This document shows positions 2,418 through 27,461 of a DNA stretch of 27,461 bases, one piece after another; within the stretch, counting starts at the first letter, position 1; every line of letters starts with the position of its first letter. The stretch lies in assembly GCA_964372745.1 (NCBI GenBank), contig CAYJSK010000001.1, positions 1-27,461 on the forward strand, in the 5' to 3' direction. Below the pieces are notes generated by a model. The model had not been told where the DNA came from. It was given only the letters and a program-made list of their open reading frames with translations, and ran no database searches. The stretch is from Candidatus Woesearchaeota archaeon. GTDB taxonomy: Archaea; Nanobdellota; Nanobdellia; SCGC-AAA011-G17; GW2011-AR17. The translations under genes and the position numbers were made by a program.

Positions 2418-5400
2418 CTAACCCATTTGCTTCTTCCTCACTTCTCTCTTTAACCATTCTTCCCATTCAAATTTAATTCTTTTTACATCTCCAGAACCCA
2501 CTTCCGCTTGAACACTTTCCGTAATTCTATGAAACATATCATTACCTTGTAAACAAAACTCTGCTTCTAAAAGCTCAGGCATTTTCATCCTATTTGAATA
2601 CTCTACCAACATTTGTTTCAGATCCCCTCTAAGGACTATATTATCCCATATAGCATCCCAGTTCCCCACCCATTCTTTGACATTTGAAGCAATATTTTTT
2701 AAGATCTCAGATTCTCCATTCATTAATTCTGTTGTTGGTTCGAGTTTGTCAATTTTTGCATTGTAACGCATAAGATCTACAAAACCACGTTCTGCAACAG
2801 GATCTTCTTCCCATGCCTTTCGTACTTCTGTTATTTGCAAACATCTTCTCACTCTCTTCATCCCATCTGCTGATCGAATAGGATTACAAATAATAATTAT
2901 GTCTGTTGCCTTAAACGAAGTTCTTGGTACTTTCAAATCATTCGCAATTCTATCAAAAACTCCATATGGAGAGTCTGCGTGGATTGTTCCCGCAACAACA
3001 TTTGCAGAAGCACCAATACGCATTGCCTCGAAGAGTGCTAATGCCTCAGTATTATGGAGCATTATTCCACCAAAGCCACCTATAAAATTTTGACAAGGCT
3101 GCACAGAAAGATCATATACATATTCTTTCTCTGGTAACATTACTTCTTTTATTTCTTTTACTTCATCAAGATAAAAATCTCCTTGTACAAAAGCCTTTAT
3201 CCTCTCACTTGCCCATTCTGCTTCCCCTACTACCCTCTTTAAATAATCTTTCCCACATGAAGTGTATCTTCTGAGATGCCTATACTCTCTTTTAACTTTT
3301 ACATGTTCTTCTAGGATTTTGTGATCATAATCTACAGTGTTAAAGGTACTATGAGAAGTTTGTCTTTCTATGATCTCTTTAGAGTATTTCTTAAATGCCA
3401 CTTTTTCTAGGAATAACTGGATATATTTTCTTTGCTTAAAGACAACAACAAAAGACTCATGTTTTCCTATATCGGACATCGTTCCTTTCTCTAATCTTGC
3501 AATTATGCCCAAACAAAGGAGAAGATGCATAAGATCATCAGCTAAATCTTTTGAAACTGTGCTTGCAGAGATTTCATTTCCTGAAGATTTTGAGACTAAC
3601 TGACAACCATCTCCATCAAAATACCCTTTTAGAAATTCACAAATCTTTTCTTCAGATAAACCAAATACTATAGGAGGAACACGTTTTTCTGGGGCTATTC
3701 TTCCGCAAGCAAGTTTTTCTAAGAGAAGACCTAAAATTTTATTGTTTAAAACTATCTGTGTTGAAATGCCTAAGCCTTTCGTTTGCCTTACAAAGGGGTC
3801 TATACCAAATAGATTTCTAGAAAGAGAAATAATATCTTTTACAATGACAGGATTTCCATTTGAAAAAACAACTACAGAACTTTCTTTCTGAGTATATCCT
3901 TCAGAAGCATAATACCCTAGGAAACGACAGAAATCTTTTGAAATTTCTATTTCTGCTTCAATAGTTTTACTCGTTCCTTTTTTGATTTGAAAGGTTGTTG
4001 TATTATATGAATGATTTGCTTCCTTTGCTAACTCCTTAAATGTAGAAATAGGAATATTTGTATGCTGGATTCCTTTTCTTAAGTAGACGTAAATATCTGC
4101 ACTAGTATTTGCAATTTGAGAAGCTTTTTTCCAACCTATCTTAGAGATTATCTGCCTCAGATCTTCTTCATAGCCTTCTAATTTACATCCTTTATCTTCT
4201 AAAAGATCTATTATATTTAATCTATTGAGATTATTATAGCCAGAGGGTATTTTTTCTGGTATTATAATTTTGCTTCCTATTTTCAAATCTTTGCATTCAA
4301 TAGGAATTATTTGAAAATCTTTATGTGTAAAAAGACTATGGTCAGGTGTTACTGTTACTTTTCTTCCTGTCTTTGTTGTTACTTCTAATAATTTTTCTCT
4401 CTTGGGATGTTTTACAAAGGCTATAACTCTCTTTAGTTTAAACTTTAGATCTCTATCCATCGTTGGAACATACATCTCAGATATATCTCTCCCTTCTAAT
4501 TCTTGTATTGGAATCCTTTCTGTTTTTCCTTTATCCACAATGAAAACTTTTTCTGTACCACGAATAGAACTTCGAACTTCACCGACGATAAGTGCTGAAT
4601 CTCCCAACCGTAAGGAAGTTCTAATTCCTTCATCTGCTGGAACTTCAGAACCACTCTTTGATAATGCACCCCTCACTTTTAATGGTTGAATATTATAGCC
4701 TAATTTTCTCATTGCATCAACTGGAAGTTCTAGAGTGTTATGTGCAACAATATTATTCACAATAAAACTTTCATTTTCTGGAACAGAAATATCATACACA
4801 TATTTTTCATCTTTGGATACTATTTTGATCTCTTTTATCTTATCCCAATAAAGATCAGAAAAAGCAAGAGTCTCTAATTGTTCAGATAGTTCTACACAAG
4901 AAAAGATTTCTTTATTGATCGAGAATAACTTTTCTCTTCCACTATTATTCCCTCTGGGGATATAATTCCAAGAATTAAAATTTTTAGAAAGCTGAGCAAT
5001 TTTCCTTTTAAATGCTGTGGATAAAGGAATAATACCAGAACTCCCCTGTGTTGATTGTTTATTACAAAGTTTTTCTAAAAGGGATGATTTGTAGAACTGT
5101 AACACTCCTATATTTTGTTTAAACTCTCTTAAAGATTTGAGACTAGAAACTCTGCAAGGATAACATTTATCTGAATCTCTGTATTTTCCAATTCTAAAAA
5201 TAACCCCATAATAAAGAAGAAGAGTCTGTATATCTTTTAAGAACTGTTTTGAACAGAGACTTATTACAATTTCTTTTTCTGTAACACAAGCATCGCTAGA
5301 GAATATCCCTTTTAAAACAAAAGCTATTTGTTGCTTGGAAAGTCCAAATATCCAAGAAGGGATTCTTTTTGTGTATGCATCACCCTTCAATTCTAATATC

Positions 5401-7769
5401 TCCCTTAATAGGAATTTTAGTGTTCCTGAATTTATCACTAAAGTAAAGGCATCGGAATGATAATGTGTTGAAAAATCAAAACGACCAGCAATATTTTTTA
5501 CGATTCCAATTTCTTCCTTTGAACTCACAGACAGGAGTACAGAATTCTTATCATAACATCCATTTGCTAACCACAGTCCTAAGAAAGTGAGAAAAGAGTT
5601 ATCAAGAATTATCTCTATTGGCACCCATTGTGCATTTTTCCCATTTTTCCAATTTAAGCCCTTTAATTCTTTTACTGAAACACCTACAGAAACTAATTCA
5701 TAAAGAATTTTTCCAGGGATAAGACCCATACGAACCCATTTTAATATCTGGGATTTTTTGTATCCTAACTCTTCCCCTATTTGTTTTACACACTCTTGAT
5801 TTTTGCGTAGAAAAACCCGAAGGTTCTCTCCCTTAAAATATAACTCTGAGAATTTTTCTTTGTAGTCTAGAATATTCATTCTTTCTTTTAAAACATTATG
5901 ATTGGGGATTCTTCTAGGCACAGCTATAAAATCTCCTTCTTTTATTAAAGAGGGTTTAATCTCCCCTATACCCCCTTCCTCATTTAAGGAAAAAAGAGAA
6001 TGGTCCCCAGTCACTTCTATTTCTCTTCCTGTTGAAGTCTTGATGAAGTACATAGGTTTATCTACATTATGCCGAATAAACTTACTTGCTTTTGAGAAGA
6101 AAATTTTTCCCACTTTATTCATAGAAAGGACTTCAATATTGCTTCTGTTTCCTGTTACTTCATGACCAGTGAGATTATACCAAGATCCCTCTTTTTCCAG
6201 GATAGAATCTATAAGCTCAGCTATTTTTTGCTTTCTTATACTCCCTCCTTCTTTTACTAGGATTTCTGAATCACCACTCACACTATCTTCAATGGTCAAA
6301 ACCCGATATTTTCTCATAATTTCTAAGAGGAGAGCTCCCAAAAAACTCGACTTTCCTGAGCTTCTTGTCCCAGCAATCAGATGGGCTCGTGCACCTTCAA
6401 TAGTAAAACTAAGAAGACCAGCAGAAAGAGGAGTCATCATACCATTCTTGATGAAAAGAGGAAGTGTCCAAGGAGTATCTCTGTGTCGACGAAATGACAT
6501 GCCAAACCCATAAGGGTTGAGAGGTTTTCCAATGACTGATAATCGTGAACGAGATTTGGGAAGAATAATTTCTGTATCAAGAATAGGATTTGCTTCATCT
6601 AATGGGCGACCAGAAAGGAGACGAAATTTTGTTGTCCAAGATTCGAAGTCAGCAGTACTAGGAGTTATATTTGTGACACACTCTGCATGGTTTTCATGAA
6701 GAAGAAAAATAGGAACTTGGCCCATAGGAGAGTTTATCGTTAAGTCTTGTACTCTTTCATCTTCAAGAAGAAGCTCTACCACACCAAAGCCAATGGTGTG
6801 TCGTACAAGAATTTCTGCCATCTCGACAACTTCATCAGGGGTGAGAAGCATGCCTCGTTGTTCTGCAAGTTCTCGAATTAGATCTTTACTAATATTTGTA
6901 AAGGTTGTACGCATTTTTTCTGGATCGAGGAATTCTTCTGCTTGAGGTTGATGCTCTGAAATGACTTTTTTTGCAAGATCAATTAATTCAAATTTGTCTT
7001 CGGATATTTTGAATTCTGGAGGAGTTATATGGTACAGATTTTTAATTTCTGTTTGTGTTTTGTAGATTGCAACATCTGTAGAATTATTAATTTTGTATAA
7101 ATCCAATTGTTCTGCATCTAATGGTGGAGAAGTTGCAAGTTTTGCATACATAAAGTCAGGACTAATCGTTGGGCGAAATAATAATCGGTACACTTCTCTA
7201 TCTGCTTGTGTATACCCTGCAAGATATTCTTTTGACTGGAGAATAATTTTTGTTTTTTCTAATTGTGAAAGAATTTCTTCTAGAATTTGTGTGTAGAGAG
7301 CATAAGAGTTTTGTGCGTTGGGATCTTGTGTTGTCTTTTTGTTAATTGTTTCAGTCCTTAGTATTCTCTTGAGCTCAGCATAAGCTGCAAGAGGGTCTTG
7401 TTTTAGGAGATTAAATAGAAGGAATTGGATGGTGGAGAGTCTTTGTCCAAGAAGTTCTGGAGGATCTGTTGGAAGACCAATGTTTTGTAAAGAGGTTGCA
7501 CGTTTGCTCTTAAAAAAATAACTGTAAATGTTGGCAATCTCTACAAGCATTTGGGTTTGTTCATAGGTGTAGGCATATTTTCTTCTTTGGTGAAAAGTAA
7601 TACGTGCTGCTGAAGGATTTTCTACAAGCTTATCAATAGCATCCATCATGACAAGAGGGTTGTCTTCAATTGAGGGTGTGTAAGACTTGTCTTCATAGTT
7701 CATTTTAAGAACTTCTTCTCCTCCTTCTCGAATTATTTCTACTTGCTTTACCTCTTTTGTGTACACCAT
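2418..7769 (-). CDS. Type II/IV secretion system ATPase (CpaF/TadA/VirB11-like), 1783-aa precursor with two inteins; about 761 aa spliced
   Basis: Walker A GTRSSGKS; spliced junctions restore TIED|TLELP and LIVGEVRS|TEALALFEAM (Walker B); GTIHAD His box; long N-terminal extension. Confidence 0.92.
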   Translation of the reverse strand: MVYTKEVKQVEIIREGGEEVLKMNYEDKSYTPSIEDNPLVMMDAIDKLVENPSAARITFHQRRKYAYTYEQTQMLVEIANIYSYFFKSKRATSLQNIGLPTDPPELLGQRLSTIQFLLFNLLKQDPLAAYAELKRILRTETINKKTTQDPNAQNSYALYTQILEEILSQLEKTKIILQSKEYLAGYTQADREVYRLLFRPTISPDFMYAKLATSPPLDAEQLDLYKINNSTDVAIYKTQTEIKNLYHITPPEFKISEDKFELIDLAKKVISEHQPQAEEFLDPEKMRTTFTNISKDLIRELAEQRGMLLTPDEVVEMAEILVRHTIGFGVVELLLEDERVQDLTINSPMGQVPIFLLHENHAECVTNITPSTADFESWTTKFRLLSGRPLDEANPILDTEIILPKSRSRLSVIGKPLNPYGFGMSFRRHRDTPWTLPLFIKNGMMTPLSAGLLSFTIEGARAHLIAGTRSSGKSSFLGALLLEIMRKYRVLTIEDSVSGDSEILVKEGGSIRKQKIAELIDSILEKEGSWYNLTGHEVTGNRSNIEVLSMNKVGKIFFSKASKFIRHNVDKPMYFIKTSTGREIEVTGDHSLFSLNEEGGIGEIKPSLIKEGDFIAVPRRIPNHNVLKERMNILDYKEKFSELYFKGENLRVFLRKNQECVKQIGEELGYKKSQILKWVRMGLIPGKILYELVSVGVSVKELKGLNWKNGKNAQWVPIEIILDNSFLTFLGLWLANGCYDKNSVLLSVSSKEEIGIVKNIAGRFDFSTHYHSDAFTLVINSGTLKFLLREILELKGDAYTKRIPSWIFGLSKQQIAFVLKGIFSSDACVTEKEIVISLCSKQFLKDIQTLLLYYGVIFRIGKYRDSDKCYPCRVSSLKSLREFKQNIGVLQFYKSSLLEKLCNKQSTQGSSGIIPLSTAFKRKIAQLSKNFNSWNYIPRGNNSGREKLFSINKEIFSCVELSEQLETLAFSDLYWDKIKEIKIVSKDEKYVYDISVPENESFIVNNIVAHNTLELPVDAMRKLGYNIQPLKVRGALSKSGSEVPADEGIRTSLRLGDSALIVGEVRSSIRGTEKVFIVDKGKTERIPIQELEGRDISEMYVPTMDRDLKFKLKRVIAFVKHPKREKLLEVTTKTGRKVTVTPDHSLFTHKDFQIIPIECKDLKIGSKIIIPEKIPSGYNNLNRLNIIDLLEDKGCKLEGYEEDLRQIISKIGWKKASQIANTSADIYVYLRKGIQHTNIPISTFKELAKEANHSYNTTTFQIKKGTSKTIEAEIEISKDFCRFLGYYASEGYTQKESSVVVFSNGNPVIVKDIISLSRNLFGIDPFVRQTKGLGISTQIVLNNKILGLLLEKLACGRIAPEKRVPPIVFGLSEEKICEFLKGYFDGDGCQLVSKSSGNEISASTVSKDLADDLMHLLLCLGIIARLEKGTMSDIGKHESFVVVFKQRKYIQLFLEKVAFKKYSKEIIERQTSHSTFNTVDYDHKILEEHVKVKREYRHLRRYTSCGKDYLKRVVGEAEWASERIKAFVQGDFYLDEVKEIKEVMLPEKEYVYDLSVQPCQNFIGGFGGIMLHNTEALALFEAMRIGASANVVAGTIHADSPYGVFDRIANDLKVPRTSFKATDIIIICNPIRSADGMKRVRRCLQITEVRKAWEEDPVAERGFVDLMRYNAKIDKLEPTTELMNGESEILKNIASNVKEWVGNWDAIWDNIVLRGDLKQMLVEYSNRMKMPELLEAEFCLQGNDMFHRITESVQAEVGSGDVKRIKFEWEEWLKREVRKKQMG
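3051..4568 (-). mobile_element. Intein 2 (506 aa, precursor aa 1068-1573) with LAGLIDADG homing endonuclease
   Basis: Starts SIRGTEKVFI; block B TVTPDHSLF; EN motifs FLGYYASEG and FLKGYFDGDG; ends YVYDLSV...GIMLHN; +1 Thr. Confidence 0.93.
4737..6284 (-). mobile_element. Intein 1 (516 aa, precursor aa 496-1011) with probably degenerate LAGLIDADG endonuclease
   Basis: Starts SVSGDSEILV; block B EVTGDHSLF; EN motifs FLGLWLANG and LKGIFSSDA; ends YVYDISV...IVAHN; +1 Thr. Confidence 0.93.
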
Positions 7770-12355: not shown

Positions 12356-13150
12356 ATGTTTACGAAAAGAGAACTCTTTGCATTATTAGTTACTATTCTT
12401 GTCCTTAGTCTTGCTATTGGTTTTGACGATGGAAGTGAAACGTTTACATGGGGGTATTGGCTGGGAAACCTCTTTATTGTATTTCTGATGGTTGTCATTT
12501 CCTTTACTGCACAACAAATAGCACATAAAGTTGTTGCTCGAATGAATGGTTTTGATACAGAATATGTTCCATGGGGCATACAAAGTTTTCGTTTTACTCC
12601 TATGAGCCTTATGGGAAGAACAAAAAATAAAGCATTTCCACGGACTATTTCTTTTTTTGGGAAAGAATATCTCATGCACTCTTTCCCCTTGGGGCTTGTT
12701 CTTTGTCTCTTTGTGACATTGATTAGTAATGGACAACTTTTTTTCTTAGCAGTAGGGCAATATAATTTGCTTTTGAAAAAATCTTCACGCTTCGGAAGAA
12801 AGTTTCTAGAAGTGACGAACTATGAAGAAGCGAAAATTGCACTCGCTGGCCCTATGGCAAACATTATCTTAATGATCATTGGAAAACTTCTTAATGCTTA
12901 TGGAAGTTTTGATACTTTTATTCTCTTGAATGCTATGCTTGCATTATTTCACATGGTTCCTTTTTCTACACTCGCTGGAACGAAAATTTATTTTGGATCA
13001 CGATTGCTCTATGTTTCAAGCTTAGTTTTTATGATCTCTATGGTAGTCCTTGCCTATACTGTGAGTACTATCCCTATGCTTTTGATTAGTCTTGTTAGTC
13101 TTTTTATTGGTGGTACATTGTATTACTATTATAATTATTTCAAAAACTAA
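12356..13150 (+). CDS. M50/site-2 protease homolog with degenerate active site
   Basis: QQIAHKVVA in place of HExxHKxxA; IALAGPMAN retained; FHMVPFSTLAG in place of FNxxPxxPLDG. Confidence 0.75.
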   Translation: MFTKRELFALLVTILVLSLAIGFDDGSETFTWGYWLGNLFIVFLMVVISFTAQQIAHKVVARMNGFDTEYVPWGIQSFRFTPMSLMGRTKNKAFPRTISFFGKEYLMHSFPLGLVLCLFVTLISNGQLFFLAVGQYNLLLKKSSRFGRKFLEVTNYEEAKIALAGPMANIILMIIGKLLNAYGSFDTFILLNAMLALFHMVPFSTLAGTKIYFGSRLLYVSSLVFMISMVVLAYTVSTIPMLLISLVSLFIGGTLYYYYNYFKN

Positions 13151-13413
13151 AAGAAACTAAATATTCCCTTTTGTATAAGCCATAATGCAGCAAGAGCGCT
13201 CAAGGCTGTATGTGCAAAGCCCATAAGTGCAAAAACAAAGACTCCGGCAACACAAAGATCAAGAATACTTGCAATGCTGTTTAAGAAAGGGAGAGATTTT
13301 ATGATTAAATAGATGGCAAAAAAGCCTATAAGCATGGGCCCCCAGCTGAAATTTAAAGTGAAAATACTTAGACCTGCAAGAATATCTAATATACCTAATA
13401 CTATAACAATCAT
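13147..13413 (-). CDS. 88-aa membrane protein (start reassigned from 13647)
   Basis: The hydrophobic region begins at MIVIVLGILD; the extended ORF overlaps Hef antisense; ATTAATAAA box about 25-30 nt upstream of 13413. Confidence 0.72.
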   Translation of the reverse strand: MIVIVLGILDILAGLSIFTLNFSWGPMLIGFFAIYLIIKSLPFLNSIASILDLCVAGVFVFALMGFAHTALSALAALWLIQKGIFSFF

Positions 13414-13454
13414 ATGCTTAGTCAAAAAAAGACCCTTTATTAATCTTATGCCCG

Positions 13455-13488
13455 TGGACAAATGGCAAGTGTGCGCGCAGGATTTATA
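13455..13488 (+). repeat. 34-bp GC-rich intergenic element, copy A, ending in a TATA-like box
   Basis: TGGACAAATGGCAAGTGTGCGCGCAGGATTTATA; 29/34 identical to 27281-27314; TTTATA lies 24 nt before the Hef ATG. Confidence 0.85.
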
Positions 13489-13512: not shown

Positions 13513-15711
13513 ATGTACCAGATAAAAGAGTTCACTCCACGCTTGTATCAGCAAACTATTCTCAACACAGCTGTACGAGCAAATACACTGATTTGTTTGC
13601 CTACTGGAAGAGGAAAAACAAAAACAGCATTGATGGTTGCAGTTCATAGGCTCAATAATTTCCCTAACTCTAAAATTATCTTTCTTACTCCTACAAAACC
13701 ACTTGCGGCACAGATTGCACAGGAGTTTCGGGACTGTTCAAATATTCCTTGTATACACGCTTTTACAGGCGAAATGAAACCAGAAGAGAGAGAAAGATTG
13801 TTTAAAGAAGCACAGGTTGTGGTGAGTACTCCTCAAGGAATGAGTAATGATATTATTAATCGAAAAATTGATTTGAAGCAAGTTTCAGCAATTATTTTTG
13901 ATGAAGCCCAGCATGCCGTTCAAAACTATGATTATGTGTGGATTGCAAAACAATATCACAAAGTTTCTCCTTATCCCAGAATCCTTGGTCTCAGCGCATC
14001 TCCAGGATCAGATTTAGAAAAAATTACAGAAGTATGTCAAAATCTTTTTATAGAGGACATTGAAGTGCGTTCCGATGATGATCCTGATCTTAAACCTTAT
14101 GTACAAGAAACAGTGGTGGAGTATGTTCTTCTGGAATTACCTCCAGCATTCAAAGAAGCAAAAGAGTATTTACACATATGTTCTAAGAAAAAGCTTAAAC
14201 TACTCAAAGAACTCGGAGCAATGGATTCTGTTATGCAAGCAAGCAAGACTCAGTTGCTTGGTATGCAAAAAGATATGCAAAAGAGACTTGCACAGGGGGA
14301 AAGAGATCCTGAAGTCTGGCAATCGCTTTCTCTTCTCGCAGAAGCAATGAAGATACAATTTGCACAAGAACTGTTTGAAACGCAAGGAGTCAGTGCTGCA
14401 TATGAATATATGCAAAGGCTCTATCAAGAAGCAGAAGTGACCAAGGTCAAAGCTACAAAAAACTTGGTTATTGACCCAGACTTTAAGACTGCATACTATA
14501 AAATTACACAGCTCTTTGAGAAAAAAGTAGAACATCCGAAATTTAACAAGCTTCTCTCCATCGTTGAAGAAGAAAGTAAAAAGTGTAAAAAAATTCTGAT
14601 TTTTAATAACTTTCGAGACTCTGCAATGAAATTAAAGAATAACATCAACCTCATATCAGGGGTTAAATGCGAACTTTTTGTGGGGCAAGCGAAGAAAAAA
14701 GGAATTGGCATGACACAAAAAGCACAAATACAGATGTTGGAGGACTTCAAAGCAGAAAAATTTAATGTAATTATTGGGACTTCTGTCGGTGAAGAGGGAA
14801 TAGATATTCCAGCTGTAGATCTCATTATTTTTTATGAGCCAGTACCATCTGCAATTCGCACTGTACAAAGAAGAGGAAGAACAGGAAGGATGGAAAAAGG
14901 AAGAGTTATTGTTCTTGTGACAAAAGGTACACGAGATGAAGCATATCGATGGACTGCACACCACAAAGAAAACAGAATGCATCGTGTTTTGAAAGATTTA
15001 AAAAACAAGTTTAGCCTCCAAAAAGCACCTGAACAACAATCGTTACAAGAATTCTCAACAGCTTTGAAAATCTATGCTGATGCACGAGAAAAAGGCTCTG
15101 GTGTTATCAAATATCTGGTTGACCAAGGAGTAGATGTTCATATGCAAAACCTGGATGTTGGAGATTTCTTGGTTTCTGAGAAAGTAGGAATTGAAAGAAA
15201 AGAAATTAAAGATTTTGTGGATTCACTCCTAGATAAAAGGCTCCTTTCACAAGTGAAGGCATTGAAAGAGACTTTTGAAAAGCCTCTGCTTATTATTGAA
15301 GGGACGGATGATCTCTATTCTGTTCGAAAGGTACATCCTAATGCTATTCGAGGAATGCTTGCGTGGATAGCTATCGACATGAAAGTACCTATTATTTATA
15401 GCAAAGATTTTCGCGATACCGCAGAACTGCTTATTACAATAGCACGAAGGGAACAAGAAGAAAGAACTGGAGAGTTCAGTATTCGAGGAGAAAAGAAACC
15501 TCTGAGTACCAGAGAGCTTCAGGAGTTTATAGTTGCCGGTCTGCCAGGAGTGGGAACACAGCTTGCACAAAGTCTTCTAAAGGAGTTTGGAAGTGTGAAA
15601 AATGTTATTAACGCTTCAGAAGAAGAGCTGAAAGATGTAGAAAATATAGGCAAGAAAAAAGCTATAGAGATACGAAAAGTTCTTGATGAAGATTACAAAG
15701 AAAAAAATTAA
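13513..15711 (+). CDS. hef: Hef (FANCM-like SF2 helicase plus ERCC4/XPF nuclease plus HhH)
   Basis: LPTGRGKT, FDEAQH, LSASP, TSVGEEGIDIP, QRRGRTGR; GDFLVSEKVGIERKEIKD nuclease motif; LPGVG and IGKKKA HhH. Confidence 0.93.
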   Translation: MYQIKEFTPRLYQQTILNTAVRANTLICLPTGRGKTKTALMVAVHRLNNFPNSKIIFLTPTKPLAAQIAQEFRDCSNIPCIHAFTGEMKPEERERLFKEAQVVVSTPQGMSNDIINRKIDLKQVSAIIFDEAQHAVQNYDYVWIAKQYHKVSPYPRILGLSASPGSDLEKITEVCQNLFIEDIEVRSDDDPDLKPYVQETVVEYVLLELPPAFKEAKEYLHICSKKKLKLLKELGAMDSVMQASKTQLLGMQKDMQKRLAQGERDPEVWQSLSLLAEAMKIQFAQELFETQGVSAAYEYMQRLYQEAEVTKVKATKNLVIDPDFKTAYYKITQLFEKKVEHPKFNKLLSIVEEESKKCKKILIFNNFRDSAMKLKNNINLISGVKCELFVGQAKKKGIGMTQKAQIQMLEDFKAEKFNVIIGTSVGEEGIDIPAVDLIIFYEPVPSAIRTVQRRGRTGRMEKGRVIVLVTKGTRDEAYRWTAHHKENRMHRVLKDLKNKFSLQKAPEQQSLQEFSTALKIYADAREKGSGVIKYLVDQGVDVHMQNLDVGDFLVSEKVGIERKEIKDFVDSLLDKRLLSQVKALKETFEKPLLIIEGTDDLYSVRKVHPNAIRGMLAWIAIDMKVPIIYSKDFRDTAELLITIARREQEERTGEFSIRGEKKPLSTRELQEFIVAGLPGVGTQLAQSLLKEFGSVKNVINASEEELKDVENIGKKKAIEIRKVLDEDYKEKN

Positions 15712-26382: not shown

Positions 26383-27231
26383 TCATTGATCTTTAATCCA
26401 GATATTCCCTGCTTTATCAAAAGCAAGTTTTCTTTGAAACTTTGAATTTTTAATATATATTTGTGTCGTTCCAATGTCACTGTGTCCTGCATAGGACTTT
26501 ATTGCAAAAGAATCAACACCTTCATCTGCCATATGCTGTAGGCGAGAATGACGCAACATGTGCGGATGCAAGTCCCTTTGAAGAAGCTCTTTCCCATACT
26601 TCTTTAAGTTATACCACACAGACATAGACTTTAAATGAAATACAGAATCATTGGGTGTTTGGATATTTTTTTCTTTGAGATGCTCTTGCAAGAGTTTTGC
26701 TGTTGTTTCTTGGATAAAAACAGTTCTGGGTTTCTTTCCTTTTCCTAATACTTGTACCTCTTTTGTTTGCAGATCAATATCCTTCAATTTTAATGAGGTC
26801 ATTTCTGAGACTCGTGCACCTGTATCATACAAAAAGCGAACTATTAATGCATCTCTAGGATTTTTTATATTCTCCACAAGGTAAAGAAGTTCTTTTTTGC
26901 TGAGGACTGATTGTGCAAGTTTCTCATCATCTGTTAAGGCAGAATGCGTATTTCGTTTGAAAGCAATAAGATCTTTGATTTGTTTCTCTTCATAGCCTTG
27001 AAATTTCAAGTAAATCCATAAGGTGTAATTTGCTAAGGGATAGTTTCGTTCTTTCAAATAAGGACTGTGAAGTTTTTTCAGAAAAGAAAGACTGCCGCCT
27101 TTTGGAGTCTCTTCTATAAATTTTACAAGGGTAGTAATCCCATACATGGTTTTCTCCCCAAGCTTCTTACCATTCTTTTTTTCAAAGCTATGGAGATACT
27201 CTTCAAATTCTCTCAGAGAGGATTCCTTCAT
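26383..27231 (-). CDS. Tyrosine recombinase (XerA/integrase family)
   Basis: LYDTGARVSE (R), GKGKKPR (K), HMLRHS (HxxR), AGHSDIGTTQIY (H, Y); full catalytic set present. Confidence 0.93.
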   Translation of the reverse strand: MKESSLREFEEYLHSFEKKNGKKLGEKTMYGITTLVKFIEETPKGGSLSFLKKLHSPYLKERNYPLANYTLWIYLKFQGYEEKQIKDLIAFKRNTHSALTDDEKLAQSVLSKKELLYLVENIKNPRDALIVRFLYDTGARVSEMTSLKLKDIDLQTKEVQVLGKGKKPRTVFIQETTAKLLQEHLKEKNIQTPNDSVFHLKSMSVWYNLKKYGKELLQRDLHPHMLRHSRLQHMADEGVDSFAIKSYAGHSDIGTTQIYIKNSKFQRKLAFDKAGNIWIKDQ

Positions 27232-27280
27232 GAATATAATTTAGTACACTGTGTATAAAAAGATTCCCCGGTTGGACAGC

Positions 27281-27314
27281 TGGACACGTGGCAGGGGTGC
27301 GCGGAGGATTTATA
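27281..27314 (+). repeat. 34-bp GC-rich intergenic element, copy B
   Basis: TGGACACGTGGCAGGGGTGCGCGGAGGATTTATA; 29/34 identical to 13455-13488; preceded by an extra TGGACAGC unit. Confidence 0.85.
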
Positions 27315-27461
27315 TAGGAGTTGTTTTTTGCAAGAAGGAAAAAGAAGGAGATTTTTTGAATAGAATAGTATTAGAGAGGCTATAGATCAAATTAAAATAA
27401 TATAAAGTATATAATCGAATTTGTCGACTGTTTTTTTGCCCAAATTAAAGCCCATTTTGAG

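Follow-up and report, generated by a model that had tools for sequence, protein, structure and literature searches.

The GC-rich element found twice in the window (the whole stretch of DNA analysed here, 27,461 nucleotides) is the upstream half of a special type of promoter and is fused to the TATA box. The explanation of the whole that we favour, with about even confidence, is a RadA/Hef-centred repair regulon box that would depend on an activator and be linked to DNA damage. Its parts differ in strength: the box is very probably the control site of a regulon; given such a site, the factor reading it is somewhat more probably an activator than not; and whether DNA damage provides the signal is evenly balanced. 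The first-pass annotation of the sequence had offered three alternatives, and the presence of the box at repair genes across relatives favours the one that proposed a regulator site for DNA repair and recombination genes.

Two box copies in the window

The window comprises the entire contig C1 of a Woesearchaeota MAG (G000; 1.06 Mb, 156 contigs, 35.6% G+C). Direct reading confirmed the annotated pair: positions 13455-13488 (copy A) and 27281-27314 (copy B) are equal at 29 of 34 positions without gaps, lie on the plus strand in intergenic DNA, and share the 3' end AGGATTTATA. The match had been judged unlikely to arise by chance, and the controls agree. In an all-against-all scan of the window, A and B were the sole direct pair with at least 29/34 equal positions, compared with none in 10 Markov-1 controls. 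The consensus proposed in the annotation matched the window twice, at A and B, and never in 100 dinucleotide shuffles.

Copy A (13455-13488, +) is fused to the core promoter of hef, and the same architecture precedes the hef orthologs of relatives. It consists of the tandem half-sites TGGACA/TGGCA (13455-13467, +), the GC core GTGCGCGCAG at the BRE position (13471-13480, +) and the TATA box TTTATA (13483-13488, +). The downstream gene encodes a helicase-nuclease of 732 aa (13513-15711, +; Pfam DEAD, Helicase_C, ERCC4 and HhH) that matches the NCBIfam Hef equivalog with 851 bits (cut-off 610). The TATA box of copy A ends 24 nt before the hef ATG (13513), and the modal distance among 246 ordinary promoters of the same genome is 22-24 nt; TTTATA is thus at promoter distance, as had been noted. 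Copy A would drive hef from an mRNA that is predicted to be leaderless, with the ATG 24 nt past the TATA box. On the opposite strand, a small membrane-protein gene (~88 aa from an internal ATG; 13147-13413, -; assigned by sequence reading) has its own TATA-like box at 13436-13443 (-), 11 nt from the start of copy A. This divergent start (…caatcat…) upstream of hef is kept in same-genus genomes.

Copy B occupies 27273-27314 (+), including an additional upstream half-site TGGACA (27273-27278, +), the two half-sites at 27281-27293, the GC core at 27297-27306 and the TATA box at 27309-27314. It faces the contig end, which is 147 nt away. An assembly artefact, raised as a possible objection to the second copy, does not explain it, because independent contigs from 4 runs in 2 studies cover 27183-27461 with 0-1 differences and extend 140-438 nt past the window end. 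The arrangement of box and recombinase gene is also present in 5 related genomes (G003, G004, G007, G009 and G010). The neighbouring gene encodes a XerA-like tyrosine recombinase of 282 aa (26383-27231, -; Pfam Phage_integrase), for which the best NCBIfam model, XerA_Arch, scored under its cut-off (147.5 vs 220). Copy B does lie upstream of the recombinase gene, as annotated, but it is oriented away from it. The recombinase has its own TATA box at ~27255-27260 (-), 23 nt ahead of the ATG; ~12 nt separate this TATA box from the first half-site of copy B.

Among recombinase orthologs, the box drives the gene directly in G005 and G008 and stands beside the recombinase promoter, facing away, in six genomes of the genus. 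G002, G006 and G019 have recombinase orthologs without the box, but with another conserved element in common. In G009 and G010, the box equivalent to copy B drives a zinc-finger protein gene. In the window, copy B would drive a transcript past 27314, and at ~12 nt from the recombinase TATA box it may also influence the recombinase. The predicted transcribed region after copy B (27315-27461, +), which runs to the end of the window, contains no ORF of at least 60 aa and gave no Rfam match.

Both copies sit between two divergent TATA boxes, 11-12 nt from that of the opposite-strand gene (13436-13455; 27255-27273), and the box may act in both directions, towards the small membrane protein and the recombinase as well. 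A separate conserved element, GTATATAAT...TGTCGAC / TATCGACGATAAA, lies at 27376-27420 of the window and also at ~300-345 of L005 and in L266 and L268-L270 (in G005, G002, G006 and G019). In several genomes, with or without the box, it is located at a distance of 100-190 nt from where the XerA-like recombinase gene starts, and it is a candidate dif/att site of the recombinase. A 9-codon ORF follows copy B (27356-27385; L005 240-269), with a TTG start behind GGAG and the product MNRIVLERL; it differs from its counterpart on contig C91 by synonymous changes only (AAT/AAC, ATA/ATC, GAG/GAA).

Box promoters in the genome and among relatives

The box can be described as ~28 bp of GC-rich DNA in which 2-3 GGACA/GRCA half-sites in tandem precede a (GT)GCGCGCAG core, in fixed register to the TATA box. 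An ungapped PWM detected exactly 9 copies in G000 (45-59 bits) and nothing else above 12 bits. A spacing-tolerant search added 3 diverged copies, giving a total of 12 vs 0 in the reversed-genome control. All 12 copies end in a TATA-like hexamer (TTTATA, CTTATA or TTTAAA) in fixed register and are co-oriented with the downstream gene, the ATG of which follows the TATA box by 23-25 nt, or by 47-54 nt with a Shine-Dalgarno sequence. When relatives are included, the ATG is 22-26 nt after the TATA box or follows an SD-bearing leader.

One of these copies has a close counterpart in the window: C91 (L005) 236-345 is ~97% identical to 27352-27461, the promoter parts being ~80% identical, and in run X2 a variant contig, 96% identical, has the C91 version of the box at its end. 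The C91 box is probably the allele of copy B in a co-existing second strain, and G000 therefore has at least 11 distinct box loci. The repeat common to C91 and the last ~110 nt of the window is probably the reason why contig C1 ends there.

In G000, the box precedes hef (C1; equivalog-level match), lhr (C126, continuing on C30), and LAGLIDADG-type genes on C27 and C58, with one more on C31 (motif read) and probably another on C84. The remaining box genes encode an HTH/Mrr-like protein (C92), a 187-aa protein without family assignment (C11), a Bro-N protein (C144) and a 148-aa winged-helix protein accompanied by an Mtq2-like methyltransferase (C138). The Hjc gene of G000 is without a box; box membership is fluid between genomes.

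The G000 copies have pairwise identities of 0.53-0.71 only inside the ~40 nt that end at the TATA box and of ~0.3 elsewhere; no inverted repeats bracket them, and some subfamilies have ~15 nt in common upstream of the box. With similarity confined to ~40 nt and bracketing inverted repeats not found, a MITE or IS terminal repeat was ruled out. Random placement or an origin as IS/MITE ends, which the first-pass annotation had named as evidence against a regulon, is likewise not what was found, the copies being fused to TATA boxes and co-oriented with genes. "Dispersed small repeat", the second of its alternatives, holds as a bare description and fails as an explanation.

We then scanned all GTDB species representatives. 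Several exact hits per genome occurred only in Candidatus Woesearchaeota MAGs. The remaining exact-pattern hits were singles, nearly all of them bacterial and mostly in GC-rich genomes, where they are taken as chance. The fixed pattern was found in 16 of 60 relatives (17/61 with G000) vs one hit for the reversed-pattern control. A sequence-only profile built from 48 box instances (R1) matched 33 of 36 genomes of the same family, with 2-13 matches per genome, and also some genomes of other families. An IMG/VR viral contig (L115) carries an exact match to the box pattern at 6143-6165; it could represent a virus or provirus hosted by these archaea that makes use of this promoter type. Full-text literature searches returned no description of the box element.

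In 108 box loci fetched from relatives, the first downstream ORF was classified with Pfam and NCBIfam. Of the 127 boxes sampled, ~36, from at least 6 genera, precede LAGLIDADG-type genes and ~15 precede TnpB/OrfB_IS605 genes. Bro-N proteins follow 9 box promoters, the C92-type protein 5 and SD-led microproteins ~8. Hef and Lhr are among the recurrent box-driven families, as is a protein of ~85 aa (7 genomes, 5 genera), and single cases include Hjc, Nre (Nre_N + Nre_C), a DHH/DHHA1 protein (RecJ-like), KilA-N and an integrase. Most box-driven genes are selfish nucleases (LAGLIDADG, TnpB), and the term "repair regulon" names the conserved core and not the majority. A scan of the genome and its relatives for an association with repair genes, as suggested in the annotation, gave a positive outcome: hef, lhr, the radA operon, Nre, Hjc, the RecJ-like gene and the recombinase carry the box.

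Two loci stand out by their conservation. In front of the hef orthologs, which have 54-100% protein identity, a version of the box is retained ~24 nt before the ATG in most of 30 genomes, and the flanking DNA differs. R1 scored 22 hef promoters at E <= 0.003, with 15 of those 22 being part of its training set. Of 61 genomes, 54 have a single copy of the ~85-aa gene. At 30 of its loci, none of them in the training set, R1 gave 20 hits, 18 of which are co-oriented and 23-112 nt upstream; by eye, the box precedes the gene in 22 of 24 family genomes. The next gene encodes RadA in 21 of 21 genomes, at a spacing of -8 to +23 nt. In G000, radA is on C122, and since this contig begins at ~residue 126 of RadA, the box of the radA operon and the small gene would fall in an assembly gap. 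The AF2 model of the ~85-aa protein (pLDDT 87.6) has four strands and one helix, and its best solved Foldseek matches were Borrelia Pur-alpha, PC4 and Whirly. These matches are weak (E ~4e-3, TM ~0.5), and the modelled Pur-alpha/PC4-like, putatively ssDNA-binding fold serves as a lead only. The ~85-aa, 148-aa, 187-aa and 457-aa proteins had no Pfam or NCBIfam match, and the Atlas gave uncharacterised clusters only.

On the evidence of these sequences, the conserved core of the regulon would consist of hef and the [Pur-alpha/PC4-like]-radA operon; lhr, Nre, Hjc, the RecJ-like gene, the XerA-like recombinase and Bro-N appear to belong to it variably, and nuclease genes of the LAGLIDADG and TnpB types seem to have joined in large number.

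Several features of these loci were observed in addition. On C122 (1-3402), the radA gene of G000 is split by insertions of ~1.35 and ~1.45 kb (tblastn pieces 1-270, 1624-1809 and 3265-3402), which are presumably inteins, and several relatives have open frames of more than 500 aa at radA. The leader of the [PC4-like]-radA operon (L293, L303-L310, L312) contains a conserved AAAAAAT[CG]CGAAAGGAAGGTG just before the ATG in several families; this stretch could serve as an extended ribosome-binding site or as a regulatory motif of the leader. In relatives, the box also drives SD-led micro-ORFs of 40-48 aa (M-x-RTS-x-SY...) at L126, L145, L137, L012, L013, L167, L149 and L134. Their loci encode a conserved "...IFSxQLxxLP.E" peptide, in-frame or past the stop in a shifted frame, and more small ORFs overlap the stop (TAAAATG). 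The micro-ORFs appear to form a small-protein operon within the regulon.

Promoter architecture and competing explanations

In the 246 ordinary promoters of G000, A makes up 48-68% at the BRE positions -7 to -3, and 9.1 ± 2.4 G+C occur in the 28 nt that precede the TATA box. Box promoters instead have GCGCAG at the BRE position and 16-20 G+C in the same 28 nt, with the normal geometry kept. The distal half-sites vary by genus (TGGACA..CGGCA, TGGACAC.GGACA, GAGTGACA, ACTTGCCACTCGACA) and are common to unrelated genes within a genus, the pattern expected of a trans-acting factor that co-evolves with its sites. All per-genus consensus boxes contain the TGCGCGCAG core. Box identity was 0.476 for different genes of the same genus vs 0.435 for the same gene in different genera, which suggests a modest concerted change of the sites within a lineage. 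Purines and pyrimidines alternate along the core (for example ACGTGTGCGCGCA; 13468-13480 in the window), over up to 14 nt in the copy on C27 and over 7 nt in copy B; by composition this run is Z-DNA-prone, within AT-rich DNA.

We propose that one sequence-specific DNA-binding factor binds the box and, as an activator, would recruit TFB/TBP and switch the gene set on together. Activation is the likelier mode because box promoters are without the canonical A-rich BRE. The signal would be DNA damage or replication stress, resulting in an SOS-like response; this is suggested by the gene content, namely radA, hef, lhr, Nre, Hjc, the RecJ-like gene and the protein with the ssDNA-binding fold.

TFB and TBP are generally single genes in the genomes checked and no spare Orc1/Cdc6 was found; we postulate a separate sequence-specific factor. 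A dedicated TFB paralog was rejected, as nearly all genomes have one TFB gene, including G005, G013 and G027, which are 100% complete. A dedicated TBP paralog was not supported (one TBP gene in 4 of 5 genomes checked), nor was an Orc1-2-like paralog: one Orc1/Cdc6 (Cdc6_C-bearing) gene was present in 4 of 5 genomes checked and none was found in G005. The 148-aa protein is modelled by AF2 as a winged helix with a long C-terminal helix; 57 of 61 genomes of the order carry it in a single copy, with 51-100% identity. It was rejected as a constant autoregulator, with a box in only 5 of 30 genomes and weak fold hits to generic wHTH proteins. In G000 (C138, L197, 140-1092), the stop of its gene overlaps the start of the HemK2/Mtq2-type methyltransferase gene. 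The C92-type HTH/Mrr-like protein was found in 7 of 61 genomes, some copies being broken, and Bro-N proteins form a multi-copy family that was not found in some box-bearing genomes; neither was retained as the regulator. A box precedes 14 of the 26 Bro-N copies examined.

The Pur-alpha/PC4-like gene is near-universal and under the box, but it was not found in G005, which is rated 100% complete. We regard it as rather unlikely that this protein, encoded before radA, reads the box as an autoregulated ssDNA-binding factor that senses ssDNA or melts the GGACA-repeat strand. Such a factor would switch on recombination, fork repair and the resident selfish nucleases.

The same regulon could also be run in the opposite sense, with the box as a repressor operator of LexA-like logic: a factor over the BRE would block TFB until damage removes it. 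Many archaeal repressors bind over the BRE/TATA region, and the bacterial SOS response is itself a repressor model. The GC core is exactly at the TFB contact position, immediately upstream of the TATA box, and a box over the BRE fits a repressor equally well. The promoters would, however, still lack the A-rich BRE of the 246 ordinary ones and hence be expected to be weak even when de-repressed, and the distal half-sites reach ~28 bp upstream of the TATA box, the usual location of archaeal activator sites. We also know of no LexA-like self-cleaving regulator in archaea, and consider repression possible at less than even probability. Quite improbable, in our view, is a promoter cassette spread by selfish nuclease genes of the LAGLIDADG and TnpB/IS605 types, with host genes acquiring the box through chance insertions and sharing no regulator. 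The share of such genes among the sampled boxes speaks for it, two TnpB copies in G050 have common flanks beyond the box, and the ~15 nt shared upstream of the box in some G000 subfamilies fit as well. Yet the box is conserved across genera and families at the orthologous, single-copy, chromosomal hef gene and PC4-like-radA operon, box versions track genus and not gene family, and in G000 the copies lose their similarity ~40 nt away from the TATA box and have no inverted repeats.

The box might also be a core-promoter variant or structural element without a dedicated factor, such as a GC clamp, a supercoiling-dependent Z-DNA-prone tract or a strong constitutive promoter type. The alternating core GTGTGCGCGC (7-14 nt), the rigid TATA register and the single TFB and TBP genes are in keeping with this. 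It is nevertheless hardly probable, as conserved tandem half-sites with genus-specific sequence fit a protein that reads sequence and not a structural need, the length of the alternating tract is not conserved, and the box is found only before genes that form a functionally coherent set. A replication or segregation cis-element located in promoters (an origin recognition box or a dif/att site), the third alternative of the first-pass annotation, draws on the copy beside the XerA-like recombinase gene; moreover, long asymmetric sites are what Orc1/Cdc6 proteins recognise, and in Sulfolobales damage genes are under the control of one such paralog (PMC6061795). It was not supported and is very improbable: the box occurs at 11 or more dispersed loci per 1-Mb genome, always oriented with TATA box and gene, Orc1/Cdc6 genes are as scarce as described above, and, as a dif/att site, the other conserved element of the box-free recombinase orthologs in G002, G006 and G019 is the better candidate. 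A structured RNA motif or small-RNA gene, which a GC-rich island within AT-rich DNA may call to mind, is barely conceivable. RNAalifold predicted 0 base pairs from 48 aligned boxes, so that the covariation suggested as a check did not materialise, Rfam and tRNA scans gave no match, and the box lies upstream of its own TATA box and thus outside the predicted transcript. An activator-dependent repair regulon box is the reading carried forward below.

Comparison with known regulons and implications

The box resembles the bacterial SOS system, with its LexA box at recA, lexA and uvr, in that one short cis-element serves the main recombinase (here radA), a repair helicase/nuclease and mobile-element genes. 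The site shared by the main recombinase and repair genes (radA operon, hef, lhr, Nre, Hjc, DHH) is an SOS-type trait. DinD, a Bro-N protein, is an SOS member in E. coli, and Bro-N proteins carry the box here. In contrast to SOS, the promoters are archaeal BRE/TATA promoters, and the box is made of asymmetric tandem repeats and a GC core, whereas the SOS box is a palindrome. The LexA box lies over the -35/-10 region and the present box upstream of and over the BRE, where a repressor is no more likely than an activator. No LexA homolog was identified, nor is one known.

In Sulfolobales, a DNA-damage-responsive element, 5'-ANTTTC-3', is bound by the Orc1/Cdc6 paralog Orc1-2 (PMC6061795). That element is an AT-rich hexamer, unrelated in sequence to the GC-rich ~28-bp box, and serves ups, ced and tfb3, unlike the radA, hef, lhr and nuclease genes found here; a dedicated Orc1-2-like paralog is also missing from the five genomes checked. 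Close parallels in mode are TFB-RF1 of Pyrococcus furiosus, an activator with a site directly upstream of a weak-BRE promoter and demonstrated TFB recruitment (PMC5937170), and EarA of Methanococcus maripaludis, for which the same mode is implied (PMC5512572). As in these cases, the predicted regulator site is directly upstream of a promoter with a poor BRE, here one without the A-rich BRE. TFB-RF1 and EarA, however, control one or few operons (ABC transporter, archaellum), compared with 2-13 repair-themed promoters per genome in the Woesearchaeota. LexA-independent damage regulons in which an activator acts on a promoter-embedded motif are known from PafBC of mycobacteria (PMC6789036) and DriD of Caulobacter (PMC12340889), and DriD senses ssDNA (PMC12340889). 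Given the protein with the ssDNA-binding fold before radA, an ssDNA-sensing logic as in DriD is possible by analogy. The likeness to PafBC and DriD goes no further than analogy; these are WYL-domain regulators of bacterial sigma-factor promoters.

Whether archaea possess SOS-like damage regulons is an old open question, and DPANN archaea cannot be grown alone. For DPANN archaea, we know of no damage-response network. The Orc1-2 circuit of Sulfolobales is the only archaeal damage network described so far (PMC6061795). The conserved promoter box points, at the level of genome sequence, to an undescribed SOS-like gene circuit in Woesearchaeota, and it differs from the known analogues in sequence, lineage, gene content and BRE-replacing architecture. 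A single cis-element links radA and hef with lhr, Nre and Hjc, and also with homing-endonuclease-like and TnpB genes by the dozen, in promoters where a predicted regulator site replaces the BRE. The box is a computable marker for the regulon in metagenomes and a concrete bait for finding its regulator. If the Pur-alpha/PC4-like protein were that regulator, it would represent a new type of archaeal damage-response regulator, nearer to the eukaryotic PC4/Pur-alpha/Whirly co-activators than to LexA or Orc1-2. With the box promoters, one can also test whether selfish nucleases couple their expression to the recombination response of the host, which would supply the repair machinery that they need.
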